A stretch of DNA of 64,000 nucleotides from Clostridia bacterium (lineage in GTDB: Bacteria > Bacillota > Clostridia > UBA1212 > DUPL01). The notes beneath the pieces are model-generated. The model saw only the letters and a program-made list of their open reading frames with translations. It was not told the origin of the DNA and did no database searches. The stretch is taken from NCBI GenBank assembly GCA_050951325.1, contig JBMNIW010000001.1:320001-384000 (forward strand), in the 5' to 3' direction. Shown here piece after piece: positions 2,873-64,000 of this stretch. A program made the position numbers and the translations under genes. The first letter of the stretch is position 1. Each line of letters starts with the position of its first letter.

Positions 2873-3823
2873 ATGGGATTAACAATAACTGCGGAAGATG
2901 AAAAAAGAGTAAAAGCTTTGGGATTTTTACGCAACAAAGGAACAAACAACTTTTCAGGAAGAATTATAACTGTAAACGGAAAAATAACTGCAGCTCAAAA
3001 CAAATGCATAGCTGAAGCTGCCGAATTGTACGGCAATGGAATAGTTACCTTTACCACAAGACTTACAGTGGAAGTACAAGGTATTCCTTATGATAAAATC
3101 GAAGACTTCAGAACGTACATTGCAAAAGAAAGTCTTGTAACTGGTGGTACTGGTTCAAAGGTAAGACCCATAGTGTCCTGCAAAGGCACCACCTGCCAGT
3201 ACGGACTTATTGACACTTTTGGATTGTCTGAAGAAATACACGAAAAATTCTACAACGGATATTCCAATGTAAGGCTTCCTCACAAGTTCAAGATAGGTGT
3301 AGGCGGTTGTCCCAACAACTGCATAAAGCCTGAATTAAACGACTTGGGCATCGTAGGACAGCTCATTCCTAACTTTGATGAAGACTTCTGCAACGGATGC
3401 AAGAAGTGCCCTGTGGAAGACGTATGTCCAATCAATGCTGCAAAGGTATCGGAGGGTATTCTCCACATTGACGAGAACGAATGCAACAACTGTGGACGCT
3501 GCGTTGAAAAATGTCCCTTTGACACTATTGAAGACGGTACTGTCGGCTACAAGGTGTACATAGGCGGAAGATGGGGAAAACGTGTTGCTCACGGAATACC
3601 TCTTGGAAAGATCTTTACAGACAAAGAAGAGGTTATGAGTGTAATTGAAAAAACCATACTTATATATAGAGAACAAGGCAAGACAGGAGAACGTCTGTCA
3701 GAAACCATCGAAAGACTTGGTTTTGAAAATGTGGAAGCTCAAATACTCTCCAATGAAATACTTGACAGAAAGCAGGAAATACTTGAAGCAAATCTGCATT
3801 TGACAGGCGGCGCTACCTGCTAA
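2873..3823 (+). CDS. Nitrite/sulfite reductase family protein (AsrC-like, siroheme + 4Fe-4S)
   Basis: SCKGTTC and GCPNNC siroheme/Fe-S ligands, LPHKFKI, two CxxCxxC...CP ferredoxin motifs. Confidence 0.88.
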   Translation: MGLTITAEDEKRVKALGFLRNKGTNNFSGRIITVNGKITAAQNKCIAEAAELYGNGIVTFTTRLTVEVQGIPYDKIEDFRTYIAKESLVTGGTGSKVRPIVSCKGTTCQYGLIDTFGLSEEIHEKFYNGYSNVRLPHKFKIGVGGCPNNCIKPELNDLGIVGQLIPNFDEDFCNGCKKCPVEDVCPINAAKVSEGILHIDENECNNCGRCVEKCPFDTIEDGTVGYKVYIGGRWGKRVAHGIPLGKIFTDKEEVMSVIEKTILIYREQGKTGERLSETIERLGFENVEAQILSNEILDRKQEILEANLHLTGGATC

Positions 3824-3833
3824 TAACCCCCTA

Positions 3834-3870
3834 AAAGAAAAACTTTCATCGCATGATGAAAGTTTTTTCT
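3834..3870. terminator. Bidirectional intrinsic terminator
   Basis: AAAAACTTTCATC-GCA-TGATGAAAGTTTTTT hairpin between convergent genes. Confidence 0.85.
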
Positions 3871-4635
3871 TTAGTTCAAACAGAAAACATACTGTATTTC
3901 ATTCTTTCCAACCATAACTTGAGAAGAAGTTATACCAAACACTTCGTCAATCAATTTGCTTTCAAAAACATTTTGAGGAGTGTCACAGCAAACTATCTTT
4001 CCTTCATGCATTAAACACACCTTGCCTGAATAAGTTAAAGCACTGTTAAGGTCATGCAAAACCATTACAACGGTTTTCCCCATATCCTTCAACTTCCTTA
4101 TCATTTCCAATATCTCCAGCTGGTGATTTATGTCCAAATACGTAGTCGGCTCATCCAAAAACACAATATCCGTATCCTGCGCAAGAACCATAGCCAGGTA
4201 CACCTTCTGCCTTTGGCCTCCTGAAAGTTCAAGCACATTCCTATCCGCTATATCGCAAAGACCCATTGTAAATATAGCTTCATTCACAATCTCTTTGTCC
4301 TTCTTCTGAGGCGTGCGTGAAAAACCAAGATAAGGGTATCTACCGTGCAGAACCAAATTGAACACAGTAATATTGGGAACTGTCCTAATCTGCGGGAGAA
4401 AGGACACTTTCTTTGCCAGTTCCTTTGGTGGTATTTCTGAAACATCCTCTCCATGAATACTTACCTTTCCGCTAAAAGGTTTTAGTACATTGGCAGCGGT
4501 TCTAAGCAAGGTAGTCTTTCCGCAGCCATTCTTCCCAATTATGCTGGTTATCGTTCCTTCTTCAAATTCAATATTAATATCCTTGACAACTGCTGTCTTT
4601 TCGTAGCCTGCAGTTACATTCTCAAGTCTAATCAT
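3871..4635 (-). CDS. Iron-chelate/cobalamin ABC transporter ATP-binding protein
   Basis: Walker A GKNGCGKT, LSGGQRQ signature, LDEPT, VLHDLN. Confidence 0.93.
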   Translation of the reverse strand: MIRLENVTAGYEKTAVVKDINIEFEEGTITSIIGKNGCGKTTLLRTAANVLKPFSGKVSIHGEDVSEIPPKELAKKVSFLPQIRTVPNITVFNLVLHGRYPYLGFSRTPQKKDKEIVNEAIFTMGLCDIADRNVLELSGGQRQKVYLAMVLAQDTDIVFLDEPTTYLDINHQLEILEMIRKLKDMGKTVVMVLHDLNSALTYSGKVCLMHEGKIVCCDTPQNVFESKLIDEVFGITSSQVMVGKNEIQYVFCLN

Positions 4636-5671
4636 AAAGCTGTCCTCTCCTGCGACTTATTAATAGATAGATAAAGAATGGCCCTCCCAAAAACGACATG
4701 ATAATTCCCACAGGAATCTCAAAAGGAGCAAAAAGAACCCTTGCCAAAAGATCACACAGCAATGTGAACAAACCACCCAGCAAAGCAGACACAGGTATCA
4801 GTATTCTGTTGTCATATCCAACAATTATTCTTGATACGTGGGGAACAATAAGTCCGACGAATCCCAAAAGACCTGCAAAACTTATGGCGCTGCCGGAAAG
4901 AAGAGCTGCCAGGATTAAAAACAAAAATCTGATTCTTGAAACTTTCATACCTAGTGACTTTGCACTTTCATCTCCCAGCGCCAATACATTCATGTCGTAA
5001 CTAAGTATCAAAGAGAGTATTAATGCAATAGCTATAAAAATTCCTGCAAAACCCAGCTTCTCCATTGTCACTCCTGACAAACCTCCAATTAAAAAAGCCG
5101 TCCTTTCTATGGAAACATCGGGTTTCAAAGCAAGGACTGTATCCGTTATCGCCCCTATAAAGCTGGATACCGCAACTCCTGACAGAACTATCGCCATTCT
5201 GGATGCACCTGTTTTCCTGGCTATGAAATATACCATCAAAACCGCCAAGAGAGCACCCAAAAAAGCGGCAATGGTTGTGTAATATATGCTGGCAGGAAAG
5301 AAGGCAGCTATCAAAACAGTAAACAGACCTGCACCGGAATTTACACCAATTATGCTGGGACTTGCAAGGGAGTTGTTCAAAACAGACTGGAGAATAGTTC
5401 CTGAAACAGCCAAGGCACAGCCTGCAAGAACTGCAGCCAGAGTCCTTGGTATTCTTACAAAACTTACAATCCTGTAGGTTTTGGAAGTTACATCTCCTTT
5501 ACGTATGGCTTCAATTATCTCAGAAATGGGTATTCTTGTAGATCCAATGCTTATGCTAAGCAAAATACCAGCAATTAATAAAACAACAAGGAGAGCTACA
5601 ACCATCAAGTTATAGCTCCTCTTGTTTTTACTCAAACTTTTCAGGGTAGAGAATTTTCGCAACGTATTCAT
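4628..5671 (-). CDS. FecCD/BtuC-type ABC permease
   Basis: RIPRTLAAVLAG, NSLASPSIIGVNSGA, GFVGLIVPH, EIPVG motifs; multiple TM segments. Confidence 0.92.
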   Translation of the reverse strand: MNTLRKFSTLKSLSKNKRSYNLMVVALLVVLLIAGILLSISIGSTRIPISEIIEAIRKGDVTSKTYRIVSFVRIPRTLAAVLAGCALAVSGTILQSVLNNSLASPSIIGVNSGAGLFTVLIAAFFPASIYYTTIAAFLGALLAVLMVYFIARKTGASRMAIVLSGVAVSSFIGAITDTVLALKPDVSIERTAFLIGGLSGVTMEKLGFAGIFIAIALILSLILSYDMNVLALGDESAKSLGMKVSRIRFLFLILAALLSGSAISFAGLLGFVGLIVPHVSRIIVGYDNRILIPVSALLGGLFTLLCDLLARVLFAPFEIPVGIIMSFLGGPFFIYLLISRRRGQLYD

Positions 5672-6587
5672 AGCTTTCACCCCATCTTGCATTTGGCTTG
5701 TAGTGGAACAAATCCTTTGGCAGCACAATGAATCTGTCATTCTTGACAGCTTGCAGCTCGCTCCAAGCAGGGTTCTTCTCCACCCTCTCCTTCAACGCCT
5801 TCAGCGCCTTTTCAGTATCACCCATGGTAACTACAAATATGTACTCAGGATCTTCCTGTATGATTACTTCCATACTTAAGTCTTCAAGGAGAGAATTGTG
5901 TTTCGAAGCAATGTTTACAGTACCAAGGTCGTTTAGAATTCTGCATGCGTTGTTGTCATCATTCTTTGCCTTTGCACCACTGGAGAACGCTCTGATAAAC
6001 AACATGTCAGGATTCTTTGTCTTGTCTATTTTGGCAAGTATGTCATCTATCTGTTTCTTTACATCAAGACCATTTTTCTTATACAACTCCTTGTCACCTG
6101 TTATGTCGGTGCATATGTCCAGCATGGAAAGATAGTCTTCAAAATGTTCCACTTTGAAGAATGCAAAAGGTATGTCTACCTTTTCAAGAATTACTGATAT
6201 ACTTACATGACTCTCTATATCCGGAGAAAGCAGTACAAAATCAGGAGAAACATCCAGTATTTCTTCCACATTGGGCTCTTTTATCGTGCCAACAATCCTG
6301 GTCCCCTCAGGCACATCCATACCCCTCTCGGTTATGACATCATTAGTTACACCAACAAGCTCGCCACCTGCAAGCATCCAGGTTTCAGCATAGGAACCAA
6401 CAAGAGAAACAACCCTTTGAGGCTTGTCTTTCAGATTGACAGTATTATCTAATGAGTCCGTGAAGGTATAGTAATATTCCACGTCTTCTTTTCCATTATT
6501 TGCCACGCACCCTGTAAGATATGCAATTGCCAGAAGTACAAAGAATAAAAGCCACACTGTTTTTACTTTTTTATTATCAACAACCAT
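5628..6587 (-). CDS. Class III (FecB/BtuF-like) substrate-binding lipoprotein
   Basis: Lipobox LTGC, PQRVVSL, EPNVEEI, WSELQAVKN motifs. Confidence 0.9.
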   Translation of the reverse strand: MVVDNKKVKTVWLLFFVLLAIAYLTGCVANNGKEDVEYYYTFTDSLDNTVNLKDKPQRVVSLVGSYAETWMLAGGELVGVTNDVITERGMDVPEGTRIVGTIKEPNVEEILDVSPDFVLLSPDIESHVSISVILEKVDIPFAFFKVEHFEDYLSMLDICTDITGDKELYKKNGLDVKKQIDDILAKIDKTKNPDMLFIRAFSSGAKAKNDDNNACRILNDLGTVNIASKHNSLLEDLSMEVIIQEDPEYIFVVTMGDTEKALKALKERVEKNPAWSELQAVKNDRFIVLPKDLFHYKPNARWGESYEYVAKILYPEKFE

Positions 6588-54498: not shown

Positions 54499-56253
54499 CG
54501 ATAGTTTGACACTTGCTCACATATCCGATTTTCAGAAAAGCTCATAATATGAGCTTTTTTTATATATTTTTTGTCAAATTTCCCTAGTTAGCTATTGCGT
54601 AATGTCTCGTAATGTGATATAATATCAGGTATTGGAGGTGTCATTATGGCTATTAGAGTATCAATATCTAAATCAAAAAATGCCAAGTCATACTATCTGA
54701 TAGAAGATGTTGTGAAAAATGGAAAGAGAACAACGCAGATAAGAGAAAAACTTGGCACTCATGAGGAACTGCTTAAAGAACTTAACGGACAAGATCCGTA
54801 TGAATGGGCTAAGAAATACGCCGAGGAACTAAATAGAAAAGAAAAAGAAAACGAACAGGAAAAGAATATTATCGTTAAGTATTCCCCCACCAAGCAAATT
54901 ATGAAGAATAAACAGAATACATTTAATGGCGGTTACCTGTTCTTGCAGAAAATCTATTATGAACTGGGTTTGCATAAGATTTGCGATGAAATATCTGAAA
55001 AATACAAGTTTGAATATGACTTGAACTCAATACTCTCGAGACTACTATACAGTAGAATAATATACCCTTCCTCAAAACTATCTACGTATAAATTATCAAA
55101 AAGATTTTTTGAGCAGCCCAATTTTGACTTGCATCATATATACCGGGCCTTAAGTGTTTTGGCGGAAGAAAATGATTTCATACAAGCCACAATCTATGAG
55201 AACAGCAAAAAAATATGCAATAGAAATACCAAAATACTATACTACGACTGTACAAACTATTATTTTGAAATTGATTACGAGGAAGATGACAAGAGATATG
55301 GTTATGGGAAGGATCATAAGCCAAATCCCATAGTGCAAATGGGACTGTTCATGGACGGAAGCGGCATCCCTCTTGCTTTTAGCATCAATAGAGGTAATGC
55401 CAATGAACAAACAACAATGGTACCACTGGAAGAAAAGATACTATCTGACTTTAATCTGGCAAAATTTATTGTTTGTACAGATGCCGGATTGTCATCAACA
55501 GCAAACCGGAAATTCAACGACAAAGGCGACAGGGCTTTTATCACAACCCAGTCTGTAAAAAAACTAAAAGAACACTTGAAAAACTGGGCCTTGAAACCGA
55601 CGGGATGGAGTTTGCCAAATGACAGTACAGAATATGACATCAGCAAACTTGATGAAGAAGAATACAAGGACAAGGTTTTTTACAAAGATCGTTGGATTAA
55701 GGAAGACGGTTTGGAACAGAAACTAATAGTGACATTTTCATTCAAGTACAGAAAATATCAACAGCAAAAGCGCCAAGTTCATATCGAAAAGGCATTAAGC
55801 TTGCTTGAAACAGAACCGCAAAAATCAAACAAGAAGCGAAACAGCGACTACAAACGTTTTATCAAAAGCGTTAATTGCACAGAAAGTGGAGAGATAGCCG
55901 ATAATGAAGTTTATTATATTGACGAAGAACTTATTGCCAACGAGCAGAAATATGATGGGTTCTATGCGGTATGCACAAACCTTGATGATGATGCTTCAGA
56001 AATTGCAAAAATCAACCATAGACGCTGGGAAATAGAAGAATGTTTTAGAATAATGAAAAGTGAGTTCAAAGCCAGACCTGTTCATTTGAAAGACAAGGAT
56101 AGGATACTTGCACATTTTGCTACATGTTTTATGGCATTAATTCTGTATAGAATACTCGAGAAAAGACTTGAAGAAAAATATACATGCTGTGAAATTATTC
56201 AGTGTTTGAGAGATATGAATTTTACAGACGAAAATGGGTATGGATACAAACCT
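54499..56253 (+). mobile_element. IS1634-family element; transposase (start 54646) 3'-truncated, right end deleted
   Basis: YYDCTNYYFE, QMGL, TDAGL, RWEIEECFRIMK; after GYGYKP the frame reads antisense of the neighbouring ATPase. Confidence 0.85.
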
Positions 56254-56582
56254 TTATTAGAGTATTTTTTTCGAATTTCTAAATATCCTTGTTCATTAAG
56301 TAGGTGTTCTCGACTTAAAGATGTAGATACTCTCTCATCCAATACAATTTCCTCAGGTAGCTCGTCAAATGAACAGCCAATTTCTGTGTCTTCATCAGTG
56401 AGAAAGACATTCTTGTCTTTTAGATCGATTTTTGTTTGATTAAAAAATATATCAAGGGCCTCAAGAATTGTTGATTTCCCAACATCATTTTTCCCTATTA
56501 ATGCAGTTATTGCATCGATACGGATTCTGGTTTCGTGGCTATATCCACGGAAATTCTTTATTATGACCTCTTTTAATTTCAT
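56251..56582 (-). pseudogene. OLD/AAA_15-type ABC ATPase, 5' fragment
   Basis: IKNFRG and Walker A GKNDVGKSTILEAL; truncated at about 110 aa where it abuts the transposase. Confidence 0.8.
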
Positions 56583-56606
56583 AATCACACCTCTATTATC
56601 TTAAAT

Positions 56607-56721
56607 ATCCAACCTGACCACACAACCTCAAAAACTTCCGAAAAAACATCTAACCTGACCACTCACGACCCCTGACATCTAACCCGACCACTCGCGGGGC
56701 TATGACATCTAACCTGACCAC
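56607..56721 (+). repeat. Four direct repeats ATC(T/C)AACC(T/C)GACCAC
   Basis: Copies at 56607, 56648, 56677, 56707. Confidence 0.9.
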
Positions 56722-56859
56722 TTGACTATCAAAAACCGCTCTTATGGACTTGTTCCCGCGAAGCAAAAAAATCTCATTTTTGTTTGATGGATTTTACACC
56801 CATATGTGCTAAAAGCCTTGATATATAAGCCTTTCTCACATACTCACTCTTTTACCCTC

Positions 56860-56916
56860 GACATCAATGTCACGCACTCAACGTGTGATAGGTAGGTGTT
56901 CGCGGAAACAAGTCCA
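56860..56916 (-). other. att-like junction of a serine-recombinase element (rlmD-derived)
   Basis: Minus strand GAC TTG TTT CCG CGA ACA (DLFPRT) ... CAC GTT GAG TGC GTG (HVECV) then ATTGATGTC arm. Confidence 0.65.
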
Positions 56917-56990
56917 AAATGCAATGAAAACGCTTGATTTTACAGGCGTTTTACGCATTCATCAGAAGTGCCGACGTCCAATCTGTTAAC

Positions 56991-57398
56991 TCACATAAGT
57001 AGGCTATTCTGCAATTTCCTAACCAGCGTCACATCAGCAGGGAGCCAATTAACATTGAACAATTCATTTTTATTAAGCCATCTTGCAGATTCTGCTTCCT
57101 TAAGAATAATCTCTCCATCTATCACAACACACCAAAAGCAATACATACTTAAATGAAAATCAGAATAATCATACTCGATGGTCTCAATCAGTTCACTGAC
57201 CTCGATTTTTACGGCGAGTTCCTCTTGGATTTCTCTTATTAGTGCTTGTTGCGGTATTTCTCCAGCTTCAATCTTACCTCCAGGAAATTCCCATTGTCCT
57301 TTAAACTCGCCACAACCTCTGGCGGTAGCAAAAATCTTTGTAGGGTTTTCCAAAGAATCGCAAATGACTGCAGCTACCACTTTTATTGTTTTCATCAC
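56991..57398 (-). CDS. Nudix hydrolase, MutT/NudG-like
   Basis: WEFPGGKIEAGE...ALIREIQEEL Nudix box, WLPAD. Confidence 0.92.
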   Translation of the reverse strand: MMKTIKVVAAVICDSLENPTKIFATARGCGEFKGQWEFPGGKIEAGEIPQQALIREIQEELAVKIEVSELIETIEYDYSDFHLSMYCFWCVVIDGEIILKEAESARWLNKNELFNVNWLPADVTLVRKLQNSLLM

Positions 57399-57399
57399 A

Positions 57400-58272
57400 T
57401 TATTCCTCAGCTAAAAAGTCAGATATGTAGTTAATTTCAGAAAGATAGCTATTATTTATTACGGAAGCCTCAACAAATATCTTTGCAAGCTCACGATTAA
57501 TCTCAAACAGGTATCCCATATTTCCGTTTCCATTCTTATCAAACGGAGAATATTTCACCTGGCATAATCTAATAATATCATCTTTAAACATTGATGTTTT
57601 TACAGGATTCCTAATTTCTATGTAATCACAATCAACTCTACGGCCGTCACGCTCCCATAGCCCTTCAACTGTTAATTCGTTTGGTTGAACACATTCATAA
57701 CAAGGCGCCTTTGCAGTACTAATTGCTTTTACATATCCATCATAGCCATGTAGGATTATATCACCCTTGCGAACATCAAGAAGGCGTGTCCAGTGATGAG
57801 GCATAGTTCCTGCTTTATTTGAAATAGGTGCCCATATATACCCGCCACTAAACTCTTTGTCAAAGGTGTTCCCTTGGAAAACAAAGAATGTCATACGCTT
57901 ACCTTCAATACGCTGAGAACGAGCAACTGGCTTCGGAATATATCCTGTTTTATGTGATACTGCAGCACCCTTTACTACTTCCGCAGCGATTTTTCTTTCT
58001 TCCTCAACTTTGCGAGCTGCTAGTTCTGCCTGACGTCTTTCTTCCTCAGCCTTTTTTACAGTCTTGATTTCGTCCATAATTGAAGCCTGTACTGACGCAT
58101 CATCAGCCACTATGAACTTTTCAAAGGAGTCTGGGTATAGAAACTTCGATTCTTTCGCCGCAAATTTGATAGTCAAATAATTACCTGAAACCTCTGTTAT
58201 AACACCTTGACCAAAGGCTTTATGTTTTACTTTTATATTTAATAAATCTACACCATTCATTATAATCTCCAC
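57400..58272 (-). CDS. SH3/Tudor-like domain + coiled linker + EVE/PUA-like domain protein
   Basis: VKHKAFGQGVI...FLYPDSF N-terminus; FFVFQGNTFDKE..GGYIWAP...GDIILH...GNGNMGYL resembles the reader domain of EVE-HNH modification-dependent nucleases. Confidence 0.6.
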   Translation of the reverse strand: MEIIMNGVDLLNIKVKHKAFGQGVITEVSGNYLTIKFAAKESKFLYPDSFEKFIVADDASVQASIMDEIKTVKKAEEERRQAELAARKVEEERKIAAEVVKGAAVSHKTGYIPKPVARSQRIEGKRMTFFVFQGNTFDKEFSGGYIWAPISNKAGTMPHHWTRLLDVRKGDIILHGYDGYVKAISTAKAPCYECVQPNELTVEGLWERDGRRVDCDYIEIRNPVKTSMFKDDIIRLCQVKYSPFDKNGNGNMGYLFEINRELAKIFVEASVINNSYLSEINYISDFLAEE

Positions 58273-58290
58273 CTTATAACATGTAAATTT

Positions 58291-59217
58291 CTATTGTTTC
58301 CTTTGCTTCGAACTGTATTTTTTGCTGCTACGATGAGTGCCGTCATCGTCCGTCACGACGTTACTCCTTTTGAATCTTTCTTCTTGAACGGCCCTGAACT
58401 CGCTCTCCGTAATGATCGGCGGATGACATTCTTTCATTTGGAACTCATATTGCTGTGTTGCGAAATCTAAAAGTGTAACTGTACCTGTGTATTTCTCATT
58501 TTCGAGCATCTTCTCTATAGAACGCTTGCTCCATGTTTCTTTACCAGTAGGAGAAGGGACGCCTGCTAGTGACAGTTTCTTGATGATACCAAGCACGCTG
58601 GCGCCATCCAGATACCATCTAAAAATGTCCCGCACAACCTTAGCCTGTTCATTGTCAATTACAAGGTCCCCATCCTTATTCTTAGAGTAGCCGTACAGCT
58701 TTCGTTTGTAGAGTCCAGATGTTCCATTTGCAGCTTTCATGGCAAGTCCCATGCGGATATTTTCGCTTCGGCTCTCATTTTCAGCTTGAGCAAAAGACTC
58801 CATCACCGAAATCATAAGATTGCTGTCAACCTCATCGGTATCCAAATTTTCTTCTTCAAATATGATTCTGACTCCTGCTGTCTTCAATCGATTGATTGCT
58901 GATAATGTCTCTACAGTATCTCTACCAAATCGACTGATGCTTTTGGTAAGGACAACAGAGATATTGTGCGCTTCACATTCTCTAATCAATCGATCAAATT
59001 CTCTACGTGGAACTTCGCCTTTGGCAGACGCAATATCAATAAATACATCTGCCAGCCTCCATTGACTCATATTCGCAACTGCTCTCGTTAAAGCAGAAAT
59101 CTGTGCTGCGAGGCTATAAAGCTGTTCTTTTTCGTTCGTACTTACTCTGCAGTAAATTCCGACTTTCTTTTCTAAACGGTCATTCTTTACCGGGATATAC
59201 CAGATTTTTGAATCCAC
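58291..59217 (-). CDS. Serine recombinase (catalytic + recombinase domains, no zinc ribbon)
   Basis: YCRVST, KSISRFGR, AQAENESRSEN, LYGY, NEKYTG, HPPIIT. Confidence 0.92.
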   Translation of the reverse strand: MDSKIWYIPVKNDRLEKKVGIYCRVSTNEKEQLYSLAAQISALTRAVANMSQWRLADVFIDIASAKGEVPRREFDRLIRECEAHNISVVLTKSISRFGRDTVETLSAINRLKTAGVRIIFEEENLDTDEVDSNLMISVMESFAQAENESRSENIRMGLAMKAANGTSGLYKRKLYGYSKNKDGDLVIDNEQAKVVRDIFRWYLDGASVLGIIKKLSLAGVPSPTGKETWSKRSIEKMLENEKYTGTVTLLDFATQQYEFQMKECHPPIITESEFRAVQEERFKRSNVVTDDDGTHRSSKKYSSKQRKQ

Positions 59218-59341
59218 AAGCTCACCTCCTGTTTTAATATAGCCTAATTATATCACGTTTTATCGCCAATGATAAGTAGGCAATTATTGCTCATTAAATG
59301 CGTGAAATTACAACATATTGTGTCCGCGTAATCTCTTTCAG

Positions 59342-59404
59342 CTACATATTGCGCGTTATCAATACTACGCACTCAACGTGCAACGAGCGGGGTGGATTGA
59401 TGTC
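59342..59404 (-). other. att-like junction carrying an rlmD/rumA-type 3' end
   Basis: Minus strand GACATCAAT arm, then CAC GTT GAG TGC GTA GTA TTG ATA ACG CGC AAT ATG TAG = HVECVVLITRNM*. Confidence 0.75.
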
Positions 59405-59487
59405 TTTTACATTGTCGGTAGTCGGAAACACGTCATCGCCACTTTTTGCACTATCGGTAGGCGGGAACATATCGACATATATAATAA

Positions 59488-61269
59488 CTACCCTTTCAAA
59501 ACTCTAAACATTTCTTCTTTATGCTTTCTTGCTTTTTCTTCCGTCCATTTTTCATCATCGAAGTTCACCAACTCTTTCATAATCTTGAGTTTCAAACTTT
59601 GTTCTATAATACTTGGATATGAGGTGATTTTTCCCTCTGGTGGTAAATTAGAAAACTTCGAGTTTCCTGACACTGTAATTAATGCGAGGTTGCCAAAGCC
59701 ATCAAGGTCATCTGCTTCCCAGCTTTCACCTTCAACGGGATTTTGAGGTTGAAAGTGTTCAATGGAACTTCTAAATTGGAACTGCCACTCATCATATAAT
59801 GGAGGAATAATTTCCTTGCCCAAGTAAGAATAACCATTCTTATATAAAAGATAATCAAGGTAAGTAAATACGATTCTTTCAAAACCAAATCCACTAGAAT
59901 TCTCAAACTTTGATTCGAAAACTTTTGTTTTGCAGTAATCTTCAAGTATTTCAATAATGTCACATGATTCATTTTCTAATAAGCTTGTTAATATTAATGA
60001 AATCCAATGCATAGTTTTAGGTGATGTGTAGGTTATACGCAAGCAGGATTGCAGAGTTCTTAGTTGTTTATTATTCTGACTATTGTCCTCACCAAATGTT
60101 CCTACATATTTGGGTTTATCACCTTTCCCATCATTATACCTTTCTAAACGTTGTAACGACCATTTCCCAGTTTCTTTATAATCTCTAGCATATTCACGTT
60201 TCAATATATATTTATCAAACAGTACACGGCATTTTAACATATGAAATAAAAAGTTCTTTGCTTTATCAGCGTCCCCCCAGGCCCATGATAAATTATTTAA
60301 GAAATGTTTATCATCAAGGGTTGAATCTTCCTCTTCTAAATTATTAAGTACAGCATTTATCTGAAGTAAAAAATTTGGGAACGAAATAATCGATTCAAAA
60401 CGTTCATTCTCAACTTCATCCTTACTTATTTCATTATTAAAGAGTTTCTTGTTTTTTAGAATCTCAATCAAAGGAACTAAATTATTGTCTTCATCTTCAC
60501 TATGAATAAATTCCTTAATTGTATCAAAATCGTTAATATTATCCCTGATACTAGACCAATCATTTGTAAAAAGATACTTTCTAACACTGGGATCAAAATT
60601 CATTTGTATATACGAGTCCATGTTAGAGCATTTTTCCCAAATCAATGCTGCCGTTTTTTTATCTTGTTCTGTATCCAATACTTCTAAAAATTTTGCTTTT
60701 GCTATTTCATGAAGTTCAAGTTGCTCGCCACGAGTATTCATGATTTCAAAATAATGATTTAAATCTATACCTTGTGGAACTTGTACACGAACAATAAAAA
60801 CACTTTCCAGTTTTTTAGTTAAATCATTTTTATCTATATTATTAGATTTAAAATAGCTATCAATTATTTGATATCCCTTTAAGATTTCAACAGATGCTAA
60901 TTCCTCTATTAGCTCATTCTTGTTTCCTTTGCTTAGCATGTTAAGGGTACGGTTTGATTTTTCCCGTGCTTCAAATCTCAACCCATCTTTAGCAAAATTC
61001 ATACCAAGATAACTTTCTAATAGAAATAGTGTTGTCAACCTCTGTTGCCCGTCTATTACTTCATAAACATTATCATCCCTTTGATTAACAATTAGGTTTC
61101 CAAGAAAGTAATTTTTATTAGAGTCGCCAATAGAGCTATCAATATCTTCTATCAATTGTTCTATCTCCGATACTCCCCAAGCATAGTTGCGTTGATATAT
61201 AGGAACTATATAATGAACATTAGTAAAAATTTTTGATACCGGTATGATTCTTATATTTTTATCCATCAT
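59488..61269 (-). CDS. DUF262 + C-terminal HNH (DUF1524) protein, GmrSD/SspE-like
   Basis: PIYQRNYAW, DGQQRLTT, FEIMNTRG; SIEHFQPQ...GNLALI...NS. Confidence 0.88.
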   Translation of the reverse strand: MMDKNIRIIPVSKIFTNVHYIVPIYQRNYAWGVSEIEQLIEDIDSSIGDSNKNYFLGNLIVNQRDDNVYEVIDGQQRLTTLFLLESYLGMNFAKDGLRFEAREKSNRTLNMLSKGNKNELIEELASVEILKGYQIIDSYFKSNNIDKNDLTKKLESVFIVRVQVPQGIDLNHYFEIMNTRGEQLELHEIAKAKFLEVLDTEQDKKTAALIWEKCSNMDSYIQMNFDPSVRKYLFTNDWSSIRDNINDFDTIKEFIHSEDEDNNLVPLIEILKNKKLFNNEISKDEVENERFESIISFPNFLLQINAVLNNLEEEDSTLDDKHFLNNLSWAWGDADKAKNFLFHMLKCRVLFDKYILKREYARDYKETGKWSLQRLERYNDGKGDKPKYVGTFGEDNSQNNKQLRTLQSCLRITYTSPKTMHWISLILTSLLENESCDIIEILEDYCKTKVFESKFENSSGFGFERIVFTYLDYLLYKNGYSYLGKEIIPPLYDEWQFQFRSSIEHFQPQNPVEGESWEADDLDGFGNLALITVSGNSKFSNLPPEGKITSYPSIIEQSLKLKIMKELVNFDDEKWTEEKARKHKEEMFRVLKG

Positions 61270-62574
61270 CTACCACCTATTCCATTCACAAAGTAAATCA
61301 TACACATCCCTGTACTTCTCTTTGTTTTTATTCTCAATTTTAGGTTGCTCTAAAGAAATGAGTTTTAATTCTTCTCCGTTTTTCATTTCACTGATTTCTG
61401 AAAACATACCTAATCCATAGTTTACGCGTTCATGTTCTCCTCGCACATATTTATTAATTGTCTGTAGATAGACAGCTTCCATAACCAGCCGCAAAGAATA
61501 ACTCCAAGTATATAATTGCTGCATCACAGCTTTAGATAGGTTTTCAATTCCAAAGCGATCAGCAAAAAATAATAGCGCACATTCATATAATTGTTTAATG
61601 TAAAGATCTCCAGTGCGTCTACTCGGAACTTGTTCCTCTGTATGAACTTTACTCACTAATCTTTGTACTTGCTCAAGTAGATTTCTATAATGTAGAGTGT
61701 AATAAAAAAATCGCTTTCCTGCCATAAGAGGCTGTGTTAATTGAAATTGATTTAATGCTCTAGATGCAAGTAATTCATTGCTTCCATTTGCATTAAACTG
61801 TTCTACAAAAAGATTACTTGCTTTATGATAAATCGCATAATTAAATACATTTGTGGTTTTAATCCCTTTGAACACATCTATTTTACTAGATGAATAGCCC
61901 AAACCACTCTTTCCTTTATACCATTGGGTCAATGGGTAAAGATAGATTTTAAATAGGTCATTCAAATCATCTTGGTTTACATTTTCCCATTGGTTGATAA
62001 TCCTTATTTTTTGGTTTTCCTCTTCATCATTCATCTCGCGTAAATGATATGACTTTAATAAATCATGTGGGGCTAACTCCTTACCGCGCGAATTTTGTGA
62101 ATCGAAGAATTGAAAAGCCTCTTGCTCACTGTCTGTAACAATTTGAACTACACTACAACGTTCGAATAAATAATTTTTGTACTTGTTTTGCTCATCTTTC
62201 GGTAGCTCACTTATTCTCTTAGATAAAATTTCATAATTAGTTACAATCACATCGTTAGACAGTTGATTGTATTTTTCTTGTAATAACCCCAGATCCTTCT
62301 CACCTAAACAGTATAGAAGAATCGAAATAGTTGTCAGTCGTTGTTGGCCATCGACAATGTTATACTTTCCGTTTTCTTTATGTAAAATTACTGAACCAAC
62401 TCTATATTCTTGTAAACCTTCATGGTATGCATTATAAGTATCTTGAAAAAGCGTATTTGCAGACTTCACACTCCAACTATACGGGCGCTGATATGGTGGT
62501 AAAGCCAATTTCATATGAAGTAATTCATGAATCTTTCTTATTTTTAATTCATCTTGAAGCAAAGCCACCTGCAA
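61270..62574 (-). CDS. DUF262 domain protein (no recognisable HNH)
   Basis: PPYQRPYSW, DGQQRLTT, FFDSQNSRGK. Confidence 0.88.
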   Translation of the reverse strand: MQVALLQDELKIRKIHELLHMKLALPPYQRPYSWSVKSANTLFQDTYNAYHEGLQEYRVGSVILHKENGKYNIVDGQQRLTTISILLYCLGEKDLGLLQEKYNQLSNDVIVTNYEILSKRISELPKDEQNKYKNYLFERCSVVQIVTDSEQEAFQFFDSQNSRGKELAPHDLLKSYHLREMNDEEENQKIRIINQWENVNQDDLNDLFKIYLYPLTQWYKGKSGLGYSSSKIDVFKGIKTTNVFNYAIYHKASNLFVEQFNANGSNELLASRALNQFQLTQPLMAGKRFFYYTLHYRNLLEQVQRLVSKVHTEEQVPSRRTGDLYIKQLYECALLFFADRFGIENLSKAVMQQLYTWSYSLRLVMEAVYLQTINKYVRGEHERVNYGLGMFSEISEMKNGEELKLISLEQPKIENKNKEKYRDVYDLLCEWNRW

Positions 62575-62590
62575 GTCCCCCCCTGACTAC

Positions 62591-63169
62591 TCAAATCTCG
62601 ATTATGTAATATTTACGACCGTCACTTAAATCCTGCCAGATAAAATCATATCTGCTTGTCAATGCAATGCTATCTTTATTTTTTCCTACACCTGTTGGCT
62701 TAAAAATACAACCGTAAACAGAATATTCTTCTCTAAAAAACCTATATATACCTTCATTGTTGCGCCCTTCATAAAAAGGTCTATCTGAAACAAGAGCAAC
62801 AGCAGCTGTTTTAGTAAATCCTCGGTTCTTAAGCTCCTCCATAAATTTAATATCCTTCACGAACGAATACATCTGTTCTGGATACTGGCCATTTAATGGG
62901 CACTTAAGTTCAATTGCATATTTCTCTGATTTATCTTCATTAAAAATAGTAATATCTACTTCTTTTTTTATAGTTTTATTGTCTGGTGTAAAGTATGATA
63001 CATTTCTTTCAAATTGAATACGATAGTCCGGAAGCTTTTCACGTAGGAATATCCCCAGCTCATGCTGGAGGCTAAACTCATTATAAATTTCAATACTCTT
63101 AGACTGAACAAACAAGAAAAAGTCATCTACTAATTGCATTAAATTAAGCAAAGCCTCCACCCCATACAC
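62591..63169 (-). CDS. Putative PD-(D/E)XK nuclease
   Basis: NEFSLQHEL helix, EVDITI...AIELK, then DIKFME. Confidence 0.6.
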   Translation of the reverse strand: MYGVEALLNLMQLVDDFFLFVQSKSIEIYNEFSLQHELGIFLREKLPDYRIQFERNVSYFTPDNKTIKKEVDITIFNEDKSEKYAIELKCPLNGQYPEQMYSFVKDIKFMEELKNRGFTKTAAVALVSDRPFYEGRNNEGIYRFFREEYSVYGCIFKPTGVGKNKDSIALTSRYDFIWQDLSDGRKYYIIEI

Positions 63170-63222
63170 CCTAATATAATTTATAGTTTTTTATTGCCCT
63201 TCATAATAGTTTTGCTATATCC

Positions 63223-63456
63223 TCAAACCTTCTGATACCTCTGCTGGTTAGATGAGGCCTTTTCAATTGCCTTTATATTACCTTCCATTTTATTTACGTA
63301 GTTTAAAAATAAAGTCCCAAGCAGAAGTCGATCCTTTCTGGGTATTCTATTCCATACATAACCCTTGAACAAATCTTTAACAAGAAAGACTTCACCTTCA
63401 TTCAAGTTTTCAGTTTCCTTAATAGCTTCTTCTAGTAACTCATTAACATCACCCAT
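63223..63456 (-). CDS. DUF1413-like small DNA-binding protein
   Basis: EVFLVKDLFKGYVW...LGTLF...QQRY; AGGAG SD. Confidence 0.7.
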   Translation of the reverse strand: MGDVNELLEEAIKETENLNEGEVFLVKDLFKGYVWNRIPRKDRLLLGTLFLNYVNKMEGNIKAIEKASSNQQRYQKV

Positions 63457-63596: not shown

Positions 63597-64000
63597 TTAT
63601 ACATCTACTTCTACACCAGATTTAAATTCAATAGTTAGTTTATCATCATAGACCGTTATTTTCTCTATAAGTCTCCTTACTAGCTGCTCATCATATTCCT
63701 CAAGGAGGGTGGATTGTTCATTAAGGAATTTTTCCATATCTTCTAGCCTTTGCTTGGAACCTTTTTTGCCTGCTTCTTCTGCTAAAGCCTTATGCCTTTC
63801 CTCTCTGAGCCTGTAAATCTCATCGGCTATATCGTTATAATCTTCTTTGGAATTGGCCAGTCTCAAAAGGTCTTTTTGTAATTCCTCTAGCTTTTTATCT
63901 ATCTCGGAAACAATATTATTGTCCGTTTCACTTATCACTGTTTCTATATTTTCCTTTAAGATAGTTAAAAAGCCATCCTTTTGCCCTATTAGTTTATTAA
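63597..64000 (-). CDS. Large serine recombinase, C-terminal part (starts beyond window)
   Basis: Coiled coil then EYDEQLVRRLIEKITVYDDKLTIEFKSG, the typical large serine recombinase C-terminus. Confidence 0.85.
   Translation of the reverse strand, partial: NKLIGQKDGFLTILKENIETVISETDNNIVSEIDKKLEELQKDLLRLANSKEDYNDIADEIYRLREERHKALAEEAGKKGSKQRLEDMEKFLNEQSTLLEEYDEQLVRRLIEKITVYDDKLTIEFKSGVEVDV

Follow-up and report, generated by a model that had tools for sequence, protein, structure and literature searches.

A search of a 64,000-nucleotide stretch of a Clostridia contig (hereafter the window) found a core, ACGCACTCAACGTG, at 56872-56885 and again at 59367-59380, as direct repeats. The two cores very probably represent the attR and attL sites of a single small integrative element that targets the tail of rumA and lies between remnants of other elements. 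The element is designated E1. It occupies 56886-59380, or 2,495 bp with the crossover TG counted once, and its order in the direction of rumA (the minus strand) is tail copy, 124-nt leader, recombinase, two cargo genes, hairpin, and 30-bp arm. Its features are as follows.

56884..56885, no strand: putative crossover at attR of E1; in E1 copies the element's A is always 5' of CA, and the base 3' of CA differs by partner
56886..56915, minus: E1 distal arm GGACTTGTTTCCGCGAACACCTACCTATCA, which contains DLFPRT; identical in L097, L098, L117, and L120
56927..56953, minus: hairpin followed by a T run, 3' of the NUDIX gene; read by eye, part of the approximately 75-bp conserved right end of the E1 family
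56991..57398, minus: cargo gene for a NUDIX hydrolase, 135 aa (Pfam NUDIX, 5.6e-18)
57400..58272, minus: open reading frame for a cargo protein of 290 aa, without known family in Pfam, NCBIfam, and PADLOC searches
58291..59217, minus: serine recombinase, 308 aa (Pfam PF00239 and PF07508)
59247..59275, minus: promoter-like site in the leader, upstream of where the E1 recombinase gene starts, TTATCA, 17 nt, TATAAT with TG extension, 10 of 12 positions; consensus match only
59342..59380, minus: rumA-tail mimic of E1, copying the last 12 rumA codons, HVECVVLITRNM and stop, a B'-like half-site that forms attL with the junction
59379..59380, no strand: putative crossover at attL of E1; upper homology edges to E1-type loci cluster at 59380-59385

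Cores and boundaries

At up to two mismatches, the window matches the core at these two positions only (0.09 matches expected by chance; two matches were reached in 0 of 100 shuffles). Both cores had been placed at exactly these coordinates by an earlier sequence-only reading, and the HVECV-type minus-strand reading that it reported is seen at each, as HVECVTLMSRVKE and stop at the first core (56844-56885) and HVECVVLITRNM and stop at the second. The arm that it described to the left of the first core and inverted to the right of the second is present too, as GACATCAAT at 56860-56868 and the inverse, ATTGATGTC, at 59396-59404; in both cases a spacing of 15 nt separates it from the TG that closes the core on the right. 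DLFPRT, which it placed ahead of HVECV, does occur at 56898-56915, but at the first site the two motifs are in different frames, with 11 nt from the Thr codon to CAC as against 3 nt in real rumA. DLFPRT is not a relic of rumA; it is part of E1's conserved arm. A third core, a near-copy with one mismatch, lies outside the window at contig position 393509 (window-equivalent 73509), and at each of the contig's three cores a tail-type half faces an arm that differs from core to core.

The 30-bp arm, which runs GGACTTGTTTCC...CCTACCTATCA, is unchanged in all four other E1 copies whose right end is visible, while their partner tails differ. A profile of 28 distinct related right ends matches this arm (E 4.7e-16), and a profile of 37 distinct left ends matches 59207-59380 (E 1.8e-46); profiles of both ends detect no further E1 relics in the genome, only the single copy. 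Homology to the third site stops at 56885, a match of L067 to the end of a neighbouring element starts at 59379, and public metagenome contigs break at 56877/56884 and 59365/59380 (pieces start at 56884 and 56877, and end at 59380 in two of four runs). The finding that homology among relatives breaks at the cores supports the proposal, made from the sequence-only reading, that these are junctions of serine-recombinase elements stacked on the rumA 3' end. Neither excised circles nor empty junctions were detected, in that no contig in the four public runs skips 56886-59380, contigs being blind to rare forms.

For the 290-aa cargo protein, which has no match in Pfam, NCBIfam, or PADLOC, a protein atlas gave weak EVE-domain leads only (scores 0.83-0.86). 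The NUDIX protein scores 98.3 bits against the MutT model TIGR00586 (cut-off 97.9) and matches the PADLOC candidate PDC-S07 (2e-47). The hairpin is the same in related right ends and was not listed by a simple terminator scan. Promoter-like sites in the leader region showed no excess over shuffles.

The E1 family and its target

Copies of E1 with the same 290-aa and NUDIX cargo, 92.4-95.9% identical, were found at five of 75 metagenome loci (L096, L097, L098, L117, and L120). Their homology edges fall at 59380/59381 and at 56877 or 56854, and in L117 and L120 the homology continues into the module that lies left of E1 (below). Their flanks differ, being rumA bodies in L097 and L117 and the arms of other elements in L096 and L098. 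The order in L117 is rumA, E1, module, an arrangement that apparently represents the state before arrival of E2, the right-hand neighbour of E1.

E1-type elements are widespread in anaerobic-digester and bioreactor metagenomes, and the 23 for which both ends are available measure 1,510-3,442 bp. A script classified what adjoins 46 E1-type left ends: rumA bodies in 19, arms of triplet elements (with three adjacent recombinase-family genes) in 10, E1-type arms in 4, and other sequence in 13. A D[ML]F motif was recognized by eye in 17 of the 19 left ends abutting rumA, and in 14 of these the open frame reaches 400 aa or more. At least 14 contigs have an E1-type element directly on a full-length rumA frame, without a large recombinase between. 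The HVECVVLITRNM tail and its stop are fused to rumA bodies in L097, L145, and others. Defence as the main role of E1-family cargo found no support; only one of 17 cargo proteins from other members has a PADLOC match, a weak one, and the Pfam assignments are mixed.

The five nucleotides preceding CA are nearly fixed (TATCA) at right ends and variable at left ends. Among copies of identical E1, only CA, from a His codon, is common to element and partner, and the base that follows depends on the partner. From this comparison, in which CA and the following GT were fixed by the search pattern and the argument is drawn from flanking positions and a few identical copies, we infer that crossover occurs at the CA of the His codon.

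Neighbouring units

The sequence left of the first core contains the following.

56604..56883, minus: tail module of a third element type, 280 bp, carrying tail mimic HVECVTLMSRVKE and stop (56844-56885) together with a hairpin, a DMFP-like copy in inverted orientation, and a set of four 17-nt repeats
56605-56621, 56646-56662, 56675-56691, and 56705-56721, plus: four direct 17-nt repeats, ACATCTAACCTGACCAC and variants, found also in the L073, L090, L088, and third-site modules
56746..56763, plus: inverted DMFP-like copy GGACTTGTTCCCGCGAAG, 120 nt from the crossover, with a matching copy in the third-site, L073, L088, and L090 modules

A unit running left from the first core had been proposed earlier, and the module, which recurs elsewhere, bears this out. 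It is 77-88% identical to the left flank of the third site (window-equivalent 73299-73522), 72-84% identical to L073, L090, and L088, and 82% identical to the flank of a rumA paralog in the closed chromosome G030. In L088 it lies directly 3' of an intact rumA frame; in G030 it follows the rumA paralog, with no recombinase within 12.7 kb. The module is most likely a remnant of a unit, X1, now cut by an IS, and could instead be an independent unit without a recombinase rather than what is left of a triplet element. The generalization that recombinase genes occupy the rumA-proximal end in every unit was dropped; the module belongs to units with a rumA-facing triplet.

To the right of the second core lies E2.

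59381..59488, minus: conserved distal end of E2, an arm with ATTGATGTC (59396-59404) and DMFP-like copies at 59414-59434 and 59453-59476; shared at 75-97% identity by different genera (13 of 80 loci)
59488..63456, minus: E2 cargo (Pfam; PADLOC HEC-06/Orf5-like), two genes of GmrSD type and those for a 192-aa protein and a protein with DUF1413
63597..64000, minus: 3' part of the inner large serine recombinase of the E2 triplet (open reading frames and Pfam), the gene continuing to window-equivalent 65177

The conserved end from 59381 to about 59488, with its recurrence in 13 of the 80 loci, agrees with the earlier suggestion of an element running right from the second core. The segment 59487-63165 is matched by L040 and L093 only, and the E2 backbone, 63224-68685, which like the E2 end is conserved from genus to genus, is 97-98.7% identical to L015, L016, L017, L021, and L022. 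The triplet encodes proteins of 526, 154, and 528 aa, the middle one with a Recombinase domain only. The conjugation module is deleted here, and the last 108 aa remain of the upstream open reading frame. We infer that E2 represents the final 9.3 kb of a triplet-bearing conjugative element, truncated at window-equivalent 68685. The array continues for about 15 kb past the window, where two more units appear to follow. The triplet recombinase is 98-99% identical from Clostridia to Bacilli. The closed chromosome G030 has a comparable series, in which rumA is followed by a 53-kb unit, next by one of 2.2 kb that encodes a 316-aa recombinase, and then by a 54.4-kb element whose recombinase is 99% the same, all joined at such cores.

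A proposed model for insertion and stacking

In the model that we propose, the recombinase would cut at CA and swap strands between the joined ends of the element and the 3' end of rumA. Because the tail half-site of the element copies that of rumA itself, the rumA-proximal junction would stay both a working rumA end and a target, and later arrivals would stack there. The most likely order of arrival is X1, at the left, then E1, then E2; E2 and E1 may have been transferred together as a composite.

A broader version of this model, which we put forward tentatively and consider possible rather than probable, treats the rumA tail as an integron-like platform for self-mobile cassettes of the E1 type (1.5-3.4 kb, one or two accessory genes, and a recombinase of about 306 aa). 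Since the tail half-site of the element equals that of its target, attL would be equivalent to attB and attR to attP. The reaction might then run both ways without a directionality factor, with each insertion rebuilding the pad, and the DMFP-like copies, at -54 and -93 in the arms of the large triplet elements and 8 bp farther out in that of E1, would be true recombinase-binding sites that set synapsis or direction, as resolvase accessory sites do.

The E1 recombinase

The E1 recombinase matches PF00239, the catalytic domain, at 3.2e-31, and PF07508 at 1.9e-20 over residues 189-281. No PF13408 (zinc ribbon) match was found at E <= 0.001, and no coiled coil. PF13408 is present in the three complete recombinases of the island (522-528 aa) and in one recombinase fragment cut by the contig end. 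Large serine integrases, of about 440 aa or more, read attP and attB with a zinc ribbon and an embedded coiled coil. The best 120 homologue clusters of the E1 protein are all 305-309 aa in length, 84-95% identical, which rules out a truncated large recombinase and, together with the lack of PF13408, argues for a natural short form that would consist of catalytic and Recombinase domains only. In a structure model of modest quality (mean pLDDT 67.4), no additional domain follows residue 285 or so, and nothing is folded beyond about 296. All 17 aligned homologues keep the catalytic RVST motif, with R24, V25, and S26, as well as the arginines; we take S26 to be the serine nucleophile, by analogy. 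Activity is putative, and E1, whose recombinase is without zinc ribbon and coiled coil, might need a helper.

These features leave room for a view in which E1 is bounded as described but passive, moved in trans by the large serine recombinases of its neighbours, with the 308-aa protein serving in resolution, regulation, or control of excision. Besides the missing zinc ribbon and coiled coil, it would account for the 10 of 46 E1-type left ends that adjoin triplet-element arms and for the tail half-site common to E1 and triplet elements. We nevertheless consider it unlikely. In 43 of the 58 related loci that were examined, the core is upstream of the recombinase gene at a fixed distance of 163-165 nt from its start. 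The right arm of the family is specific to it (...AAATAGCCTAAnTATCA), as opposed to the triplet arm (GACATCAAT, 15 nt, CA). The at least 14 contigs with an E1-type element directly on rumA have no large recombinase in between, and the invariance of the RVST motif and arginines also speaks against a passive E1.

DMFP-like copies

Minus-strand DMFP-like copies occur at three positions around E1.

56898-56915 (GAC at 56914), minus: DMFP-like copy in the E1 arm, from sequence reading
59414-59434, minus: DMFP-like copy in the E2 arm, from sequence reading
59453-59476, minus: second DMFP-like copy in the E2 arm, from sequence reading

In 28 distinct related element ends, at least one such copy occurs in 24 and at least two in 20, mostly at fixed offsets of -54/55 and -93/94; for E2 the offsets from the crossover are -54 and -93. 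Among random 115-nt windows just 0.97% have one, and the copies are therefore not due to chance. None is found at a junction, however, in 46 E1-type left junctions or 28 arm junctions, all of which are at CA beside a tail-type half-site. The copies stand 33 and 72 nt from the core, and that in the E1 arm is 8 nt too far out, so this arm forms no attB with rumA spacing. Judged by sequence, the DMFP-like motifs are probably parts of the element arms, namely recognition or accessory sites for the recombinase that resemble the rumA DMFP half-site, and not insertion points. The sequence-only reading had supposed that elements carry half-sites with them for further stacking. This holds for the tail half-site (B'-like), which would rebuild the pad, and fails for the DMFP copies, which are at none of the junctions examined.

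The same evidence bears on the arrangement first suggested for this region, in which the cores mark two separate elements facing outward, one leftward from 56885 and one rightward from 59342, with inter-element DNA between them and the DMFP.T copies as spare attB half-sites. Units do run outward from both cores, the DMFP-like copies are conserved in 24 of the 28 ends, and in L090 an arm is joined at CA just upstream of the next element's DMFP-like copy, which could be a secondary site. The interior, however, is a complete element with its own recombinase that recurs with exactly these ends in other contexts. With this, the absence of DMFP-like copies from all 46 left-end and 28 arm junctions, and the spacing in the E1 arm, we regard the outward arrangement as quite improbable.

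Search for a rumA body

The assembly as a whole has a single match to PF05958, at 21 bits, under the cut-off of 23. A tblastn search with RumA proteins and open reading frames from loci of 12 order-level relatives likewise found no rumA body in the assembly, giving a weak match on contig 5 only. The contig ends inside a recombinase gene 15.5 kb right of the window, and for this reason the anchor of the array is not visible here. The search for relatives returned genomes of the same order only. Of 80 loci fetched with the triplet recombinase, just 3 have a RumA-like gene within 10 kb, so that triplet loci alone did not reveal the target; the closed chromosome G030 did. The sequence-only reading had looked both to an rlmD-like gene nearby with a matching 3' end and to breakpoints in relatives. 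No matching rumA body was found in the assembly, but the homology breakpoints of relatives do fall at the cores, and the reading is therefore not refuted. That the repeats are instead degenerate copies of a rumA 3' end, produced when the gene was duplicated or rearranged, rather than marks of element junctions, would suit the absent rumA body and the out-of-frame DLFPRT, but has negligible probability, given that the flanks on both sides of each core keep 72-97% DNA identity across unrelated genera and metagenomes, with homology breaking at the cores, and that the DLFPRT piece is a conserved element arm.

Relation to known systems

The rumA gene is a known hotspot for serine-recombinase elements with resistance and defence genes. 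The locus is otherwise one more example of that hotspot, tandem stacking at rumA being already published. What it adds is a large, apparently undescribed family of very small (1.5-3.4 kb) rumA-targeting elements with a recombinase of about 306 aa that lacks a zinc ribbon; a limited literature search found no description of such a mini-element family with a short recombinase. How a recombinase without zinc ribbon chooses site and direction is a testable question raised by this family. The locus also suggests a simple sequence rule for array growth, that every element brings a copy of the tail half-site, and it draws attention to conserved rumA-like repeats at fixed offsets in the arms of widespread conjugative elements.

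Composite SCC/SCCmec islands at rlmH (orfX), moved by CcrAB or CcrC, are similar in their use of serine recombinases, in restoring the 3' end of an rRNA methyltransferase gene, and in having repeated att cores between stacked units. They differ in target gene and recombinases, and NCBIfam Ccr models give 85 bits here against a cut-off of 900. Integrons, with the tyrosine recombinase IntI, attI, and attC, resemble the present system in array building only; here the recombinases are of serine type, and each unit has its own recombinase or arm.

Published rumA elements include vanG elements and ICE-r (Srinivasan 2014, PMC4120198), streptococcal ICEs and IMEs that have just one serine integrase (Ambroset 2016, PMC4701971; Coluzzi 2017, PMC5357655), and CTn5 of C. 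difficile (van Eijk 2015, PMC4320837). As far as the available portions of these papers describe them, they and E1 are alike in insertion within the last 11-12 or so rumA codons, in a look-alike C-terminus, and in tandem and cross-species occurrence; they leave a 2-bp repeat, to which the putative CA of E1 would correspond. The integrase described in these accounts, of 547-549 codons, sits at the far end across the junction and has its own 3' end exchanged. In contrast, the 308-aa recombinase gene of E1 (58291-59217) lies entirely within the element, 163 nt away from its rumA-proximal end, with neither putative crossover (56884-5 and 59379-80) within the gene. The target dinucleotide in the same accounts is GA, whereas that proposed for E1, CA, is 6 nt upstream of GA.

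Accretion in tandem through site-specific recombination (Pavlovic 2004 and Bellanger 2011, cited in PMC5357655 and PMC5704250) is, on these secondary accounts, similar in its functional and decayed units, the chimeric att sites between them, and later deletions. The accretion-array design, with one orientation, chimeric att sites, and a common core, is found in both this contig and G030. The accretion described in those sources mostly involves tyrosine integrases at tRNA or ribosomal-protein genes, whereas at this locus one rumA-tail site serves at least three types of serine-recombinase element, two of which insert oppositely relative to their recombinase genes.

Defence-linked small serine recombinases (Andersen 2026, PMC13552941) likewise lie beside small accessory or defence genes; they are Gin/Mu-like, and the accessible text of that paper describes no rumA site or bounded element. 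Like the triplet ICEs in the available part of Ambroset 2016 (PMC4701971), E2 and the units X3 and E3 have, close to one end, a group of three adjacent genes of the recombinase family, the cargo lying between triplet and att. The streptococcal triplets described there are at mutT, traG, and hsdM, whereas the triplets here end on rumA-type tails, and, unlike in the triplet ICEs of that account (PMC4701971), the middle gene here encodes a protein of 154-163 aa with a Recombinase domain only.

Core sites in the window and in the genome

The 14-mer core ACGCACTCAACGTG occurs in the window at 56872-56885 (site S1) and 59367-59380 (site S2). These are its only two matches there with up to two mismatches; the chance expectation is 0.09, and a pair was not seen in any of 100 shuffles. 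Read on the minus strand, S1 encodes HVECVTLMSRVKE and S2 encodes HVECVVLITRNM, each followed by a stop codon. The window is positions 320001-384000 of contig 1 in a 12-contig genome, and a search of all contigs at the same tolerance found 11 matches, 2 of them exact. A third core with one mismatch and similar flanks (site S3) lies at contig position 393509, or 73509 when the window's numbering is continued past its end, while the other eight matches have two mismatches each and unrelated flanks. A sequence-only reading had correctly located the cores, both arms (GACATCAAT and ATTGATGTC) and the four copies of the DMFP-like motif (the upstream-half motif of the rRNA methyltransferase gene rumA, or rlmD). 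The DLFPRT that it placed before HVECV at S1 is present but out of frame, with 11 nt rather than 3 nt from the Thr codon to CAC.

Features around the core sites, from Pfam scans and ORF lists, in window coordinates or their continuation
54646-56439, insertion sequence (IS) that cuts the AAA_15 ATPase gene
56199-56588, AAA_15/AriA-like ATPase gene, IS-interrupted, N-terminal 129 aa left
56605-56721, four 17-nt repeats
56872-56885, S1, first core
56991-57398, NUDIX
57400-58272, 290-aa protein of no known family
58291-59217, serine recombinase, 308 aa
59367-59380, S2, second core
S2 to 63456, two GmrSD-type genes, a 192-aa protein, DUF1413
63597-67172, recombinase triplet of 526, 154 and 528 aa
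67639-68349, amidase
68713-70588, inverted recombinase fragment and 522-aa recombinase
70964-73248, S41 peptidase, AAA_18
73509, S3, third core
S3 to 79566 (contig end), AraC, AbiEii/AbiEi, and a third triplet ended by the contig edge

A second cluster in this genome, three adjacent serine-recombinase genes at 3019-6504 near the start of contig 12, is 35-43% identical to the recombinases of the island.

A complete mini-element between the two cores

The two cores had been taken for the ends of two separate elements running outward. Instead, both bound one complete mini-element, E1 (56886-59380, minus strand, 2,495 bp), whose copies elsewhere end at the same places. A metagenome scan found 75 loci. 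In five of them (L096, L097, L098, L117, L120), the E1 recombinase is accompanied by the same two genes for the 290-aa and NUDIX proteins, and the proteins are 94-100% identical to those of the window. The edges at 56877 in L098 and at 59380 or 59381 in L097, L098 and L117 agree with the expectation that homology in relatives should break at the cores.

DNA homology of the five E1 copies to the window
L096, 56962-59403
L097, 56854-59380, 95.9%
L098, 56877-59380, 95.9%
L117, 56655-59381, 94.1%
L120, 56607-59272, 92.4%

In four public metagenome runs, each from a different study, contigs break at 56877/56884 and 59365/59380, and accumulate on the sequences adjoining E1, namely the left-hand module and the end of the right-hand neighbour, E2. 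Most other family members align only from 58285 or 58307 to 59380-59385, that is, over the recombinase gene, its leader and its tail. Profiles of the element ends detect exactly one E1 in this genome (56884-56975, E 4.7e-16; 59207-59380, E 1.8e-46), and the 23 elements found with both ends measure 1,510-3,442 bp.

A search of 5.8 billion proteins returned 5,394 candidates for the 308-aa recombinase, 4,049 of them at E <= 1e-20. The best 120 homologue clusters are all 305-309 aa long, at 84-95% identity, which rules out a truncated gene, and their domains are PF00239 and PF07508 only. In Pfam scans the PF13408 zinc ribbon is absent from the E1 recombinase and present in the three complete 522-528-aa recombinases and the recombinase fragment at the contig end. 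A structure model of modest quality (17 homologues, mean pLDDT 67.4) shows a predicted catalytic domain, long helix and Recombinase domain, with nothing folded past residue ~296.

The E1 NUDIX protein is MutT-like and matches the PADLOC candidate PDC-S07 at 2e-47; the adjoining 290-aa protein belongs to no known family and has weak EVE-domain leads. The two may form a two-gene defence pair. Other family members (L099-L157) carry mixed cargo: metallophosphatase, DUF6487, AAA_18 kinase, GT28/EryCIII-like glycosyltransferase, GNATs, WapI-like immunity proteins, and an ECF sigma factor with a serpin.

Element ends, insertion partners and the proposed crossover

The recombinase start is preceded by a CAYGTNGAR core at a distance of 163-165 nt in 43 of 58 loci examined, and the sequence to the left of that core varies. 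Upstream partners of 46 E1-type left ends, assigned by script, were a rumA body in 19, a triplet-element arm in 10, the arm of another E1-type element in 4, and other sequence in 13. Inspection by eye of the 19 rumA calls found the D[ML]F motif in 17 and an open frame of at least 400 aa in 14; L137 looked arm-like, and L147 lacks the motif. At L104, the upstream arm is the one found at S2. A 550-aa open frame without a DMF motif is fused in frame to the E1-type left end at L147 (6838), and this joint may represent insertion into a gene different from rumA.

Right ends share about 75 bp, comprising a hairpin, GGACWTGTTYCC, and ...AAATAGCCTAAnTATCA, then CA, beyond which follow many different tails or modules. 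The window's E1 arm, GGACTTGTTTCCGCGAACACCTACCTATCA, is identical in L097, L098, L117 and L120. The five bases before CA are nearly fixed at right ends (TATCA) and variable at left ends. Copies of this one E1 differ in the base that follows the right-end CA, with T in two (L097, L098) and C in three (the window, L117, L120), and agree on C after the left-end CA, so that only CA is common to element and partner. We infer a 2-bp CA crossover, as expected for a serine recombinase; CA itself was fixed in the search pattern, so the crossover is inferred rather than measured. Sites of the triplet elements form a 50-bp near-palindrome centred on the same CA (GACATCAAT, 15 nt, CA, 15 nt, ATTGATAAC). 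For streptococcal elements, PMC4120198 gives the crossover as GA, 6 nt downstream of CA.

Relation to described elements

Published work (PMC4120198, PMC4701971, PMC4320837, PMC5357655, PMC5704250) describes serine-recombinase elements at the rumA 3' end, look-alikes of the RumA terminus, and tandem insertions; the present locus is a genuine instance of this known phenomenon. E1 differs from the published elements in its 308-aa recombinase without a zinc ribbon, and in the small size of units of its type (1.5-3.4 kb). Its recombinase gene lies inside the element at the rumA-proximal side, unlike that of the elements described there, which spans the distal junction. A literature search found no description of a short-recombinase mini-element family, although supplements to the papers may list such elements. 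This family, together with the fixed-offset repeats of the element arms, is the part that merits experiment.

The right-hand neighbour

The outer recombinase of the E2 triplet served as query to fetch 80 loci from species-representative genomes. Identity to the query reaches 98-99% in Anaeromicropila, Clostridium, Alkalithermobacter, Robertmurraya, Ureibacillus and Bacillus; in Ligilactobacillus it reaches 93%. The backbone, 63224-68685, is 97-98.7% identical to L015, L016, L017, L021 and L022. An end segment running from 59358-59379 to 59476-59488, with the arm and both DMFP-like copies, is kept in 13 of the 80 loci at 75-97%, upholding the proposal of an element that runs right from the second core; cargo between this segment and the backbone varies across loci. 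The match of L067 to this end begins at 59379. At 68685 homology stops, the next upstream ORF is reduced to its last 108 aa, and the inverted recombinase fragment starts. Backbone identity, the conserved end, the start in L067 and the stop at 68685 together indicate that E2 is the distal 9.3 kb of a conjugative element, ending at S2.

Position 68685 (5685 in L014, this genome's own locus) is a rearrangement joint, where the E2 upstream ORF is interrupted at residue 357 of 464 and an inverted piece of another element's middle recombinase gene adjoins it; conjugation genes are gone from both elements. Between the amidase and outer recombinase genes is a DLFPR-like motif, GACCTGTTCCCGCGG (L014 ~4440-4490, window-equivalent ~67480). 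It is kept in relatives (L016 9691, L028 9688) and so does not mark a junction; an operator for recombinase binding is one possibility.

The left-hand module and a second element type

Self-comparison aligned 56604-56885 with 73299-73522, the left flank of S3, at 77-88% identity; S2 and S3 have only 52 bp in common. The 280-bp module left of S1 recurs in L073, L090 and L088, as foreseen in the suggestion that another unit runs left from the first core. The complete Anaerocolumna genome L088 has the module immediately after an intact rumA frame (...PVDMFPGTEHVETVVLITRVKE, then stop); beyond the module lie cargo genes together with a recombinase triplet whose transcription runs towards rumA. At S3 and in L073, too, an inner recombinase of this subfamily, inverted, comes after the module. 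These three arrangements indicate a second element type, X, whose triplet faces rumA and whose rumA-proximal end is the module. In the closed genome G030, a second rumA paralog is followed by a module with 82% identity to this one, and the nearest 12.7 kb hold no recombinase, so the module could persist, or move, without the triplet. The window's own unit left of S1, X1, is IS-cut and has no recombinase; the IS insertion probably marks its truncation point.

The IS transposase (region 54646-56588) is a DDE_Tnp_1 protein in a 597-aa frame, and the 129-aa ATPase remnant resembles AriA, OLD and GajA. Direct repeats of 17 nt, ACATCTAACCTGACCAC, number four in the module (56605-56721) and two at S3 (L014 10303-10359), are kept in L073, L090 and L088, and look like protein-binding sites.

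Stacking and the likely order of arrival

Each unit's rumA-proximal end carries a copy of the tail half-site (the last rumA codons), CA then CGTTGAGTGCGTAGTATTGATAAC or a close variant. After insertion, the DMFP half of rumA and the element's tail copy would recreate the original target, and rumA would retain its full reading frame; since every unit brings a faithful tail copy, elements could stack. The sequence-only reading, most of which is correct and which needs correcting mainly on the cores, had drawn its landing pads from the DMFP copies; stacking rests on the tail half-site instead.

The order in L117 is rumA, E1, module, which is the window's arrangement without E2. In G030, a 110-kb array on the closed chromosome (contig 1, 936996-1046670) begins with rumA at 936,996, followed by units of 53 kb and 2.2 kb, the smaller of which has a 316-aa recombinase, and then by an element of 54.4 kb; the outer recombinase of this element and that of E2 are 99% identical. 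All of them are joined at such cores and point the same way. An inverted DMFP-like copy also lies in the tail end of the 53-kb unit. From these arrangements, the most likely order of arrival in the window is X1, then E1, then E2; joint transfer of E2 and E1 is possible.

rumA in this genome and its relatives

The rumA body that the sequence-only reading expected nearby was found nowhere in the assembly: PF05958 gave only one match, on contig 5, at 21 bits against a 23-bit cut-off, and tblastn with ORFs from 12 relatives' loci, RumA proteins included, found no rumA. Among 29 relatives searched, all related at order level only, 22 have PF05958 matches above cut-off. Of the 25 such matches, eight are no more than 1 kb away from a contig start, which fits assemblies broken by repeated elements at the 3' end of rumA. 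The RumA of one relative has the C-terminus ...VDMFPFAGHVECVTLMTRK, similar to the S1 tail.

DMFP-like copies in element arms

In the E1 arm, the DMFP-like motif starts 30 nt before the crossover, versus 22 nt in rumA. Among 28 distinct triplet-element arms, one or more copies are present in 24 and two or more in 20, most of them at -54/55 and -93/94, against a background of 0.97%. Modules keep an inverted copy 120 nt from the crossover, and the E2 backbone has a further conserved copy upstream of the outer recombinase gene. No junction at a DMFP-like copy was found among the 46 left ends and 28 arm junctions examined. The copies are real, conserved parts of element arms, and we read them as putative recombinase recognition or accessory sites. 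One triplet-element arm, in L090 (10760-10890), meets its partner at CA just upstream of the next element's DMFP-like copy, and this partner is not a rumA-type tail; the joint may be a secondary-site insertion.
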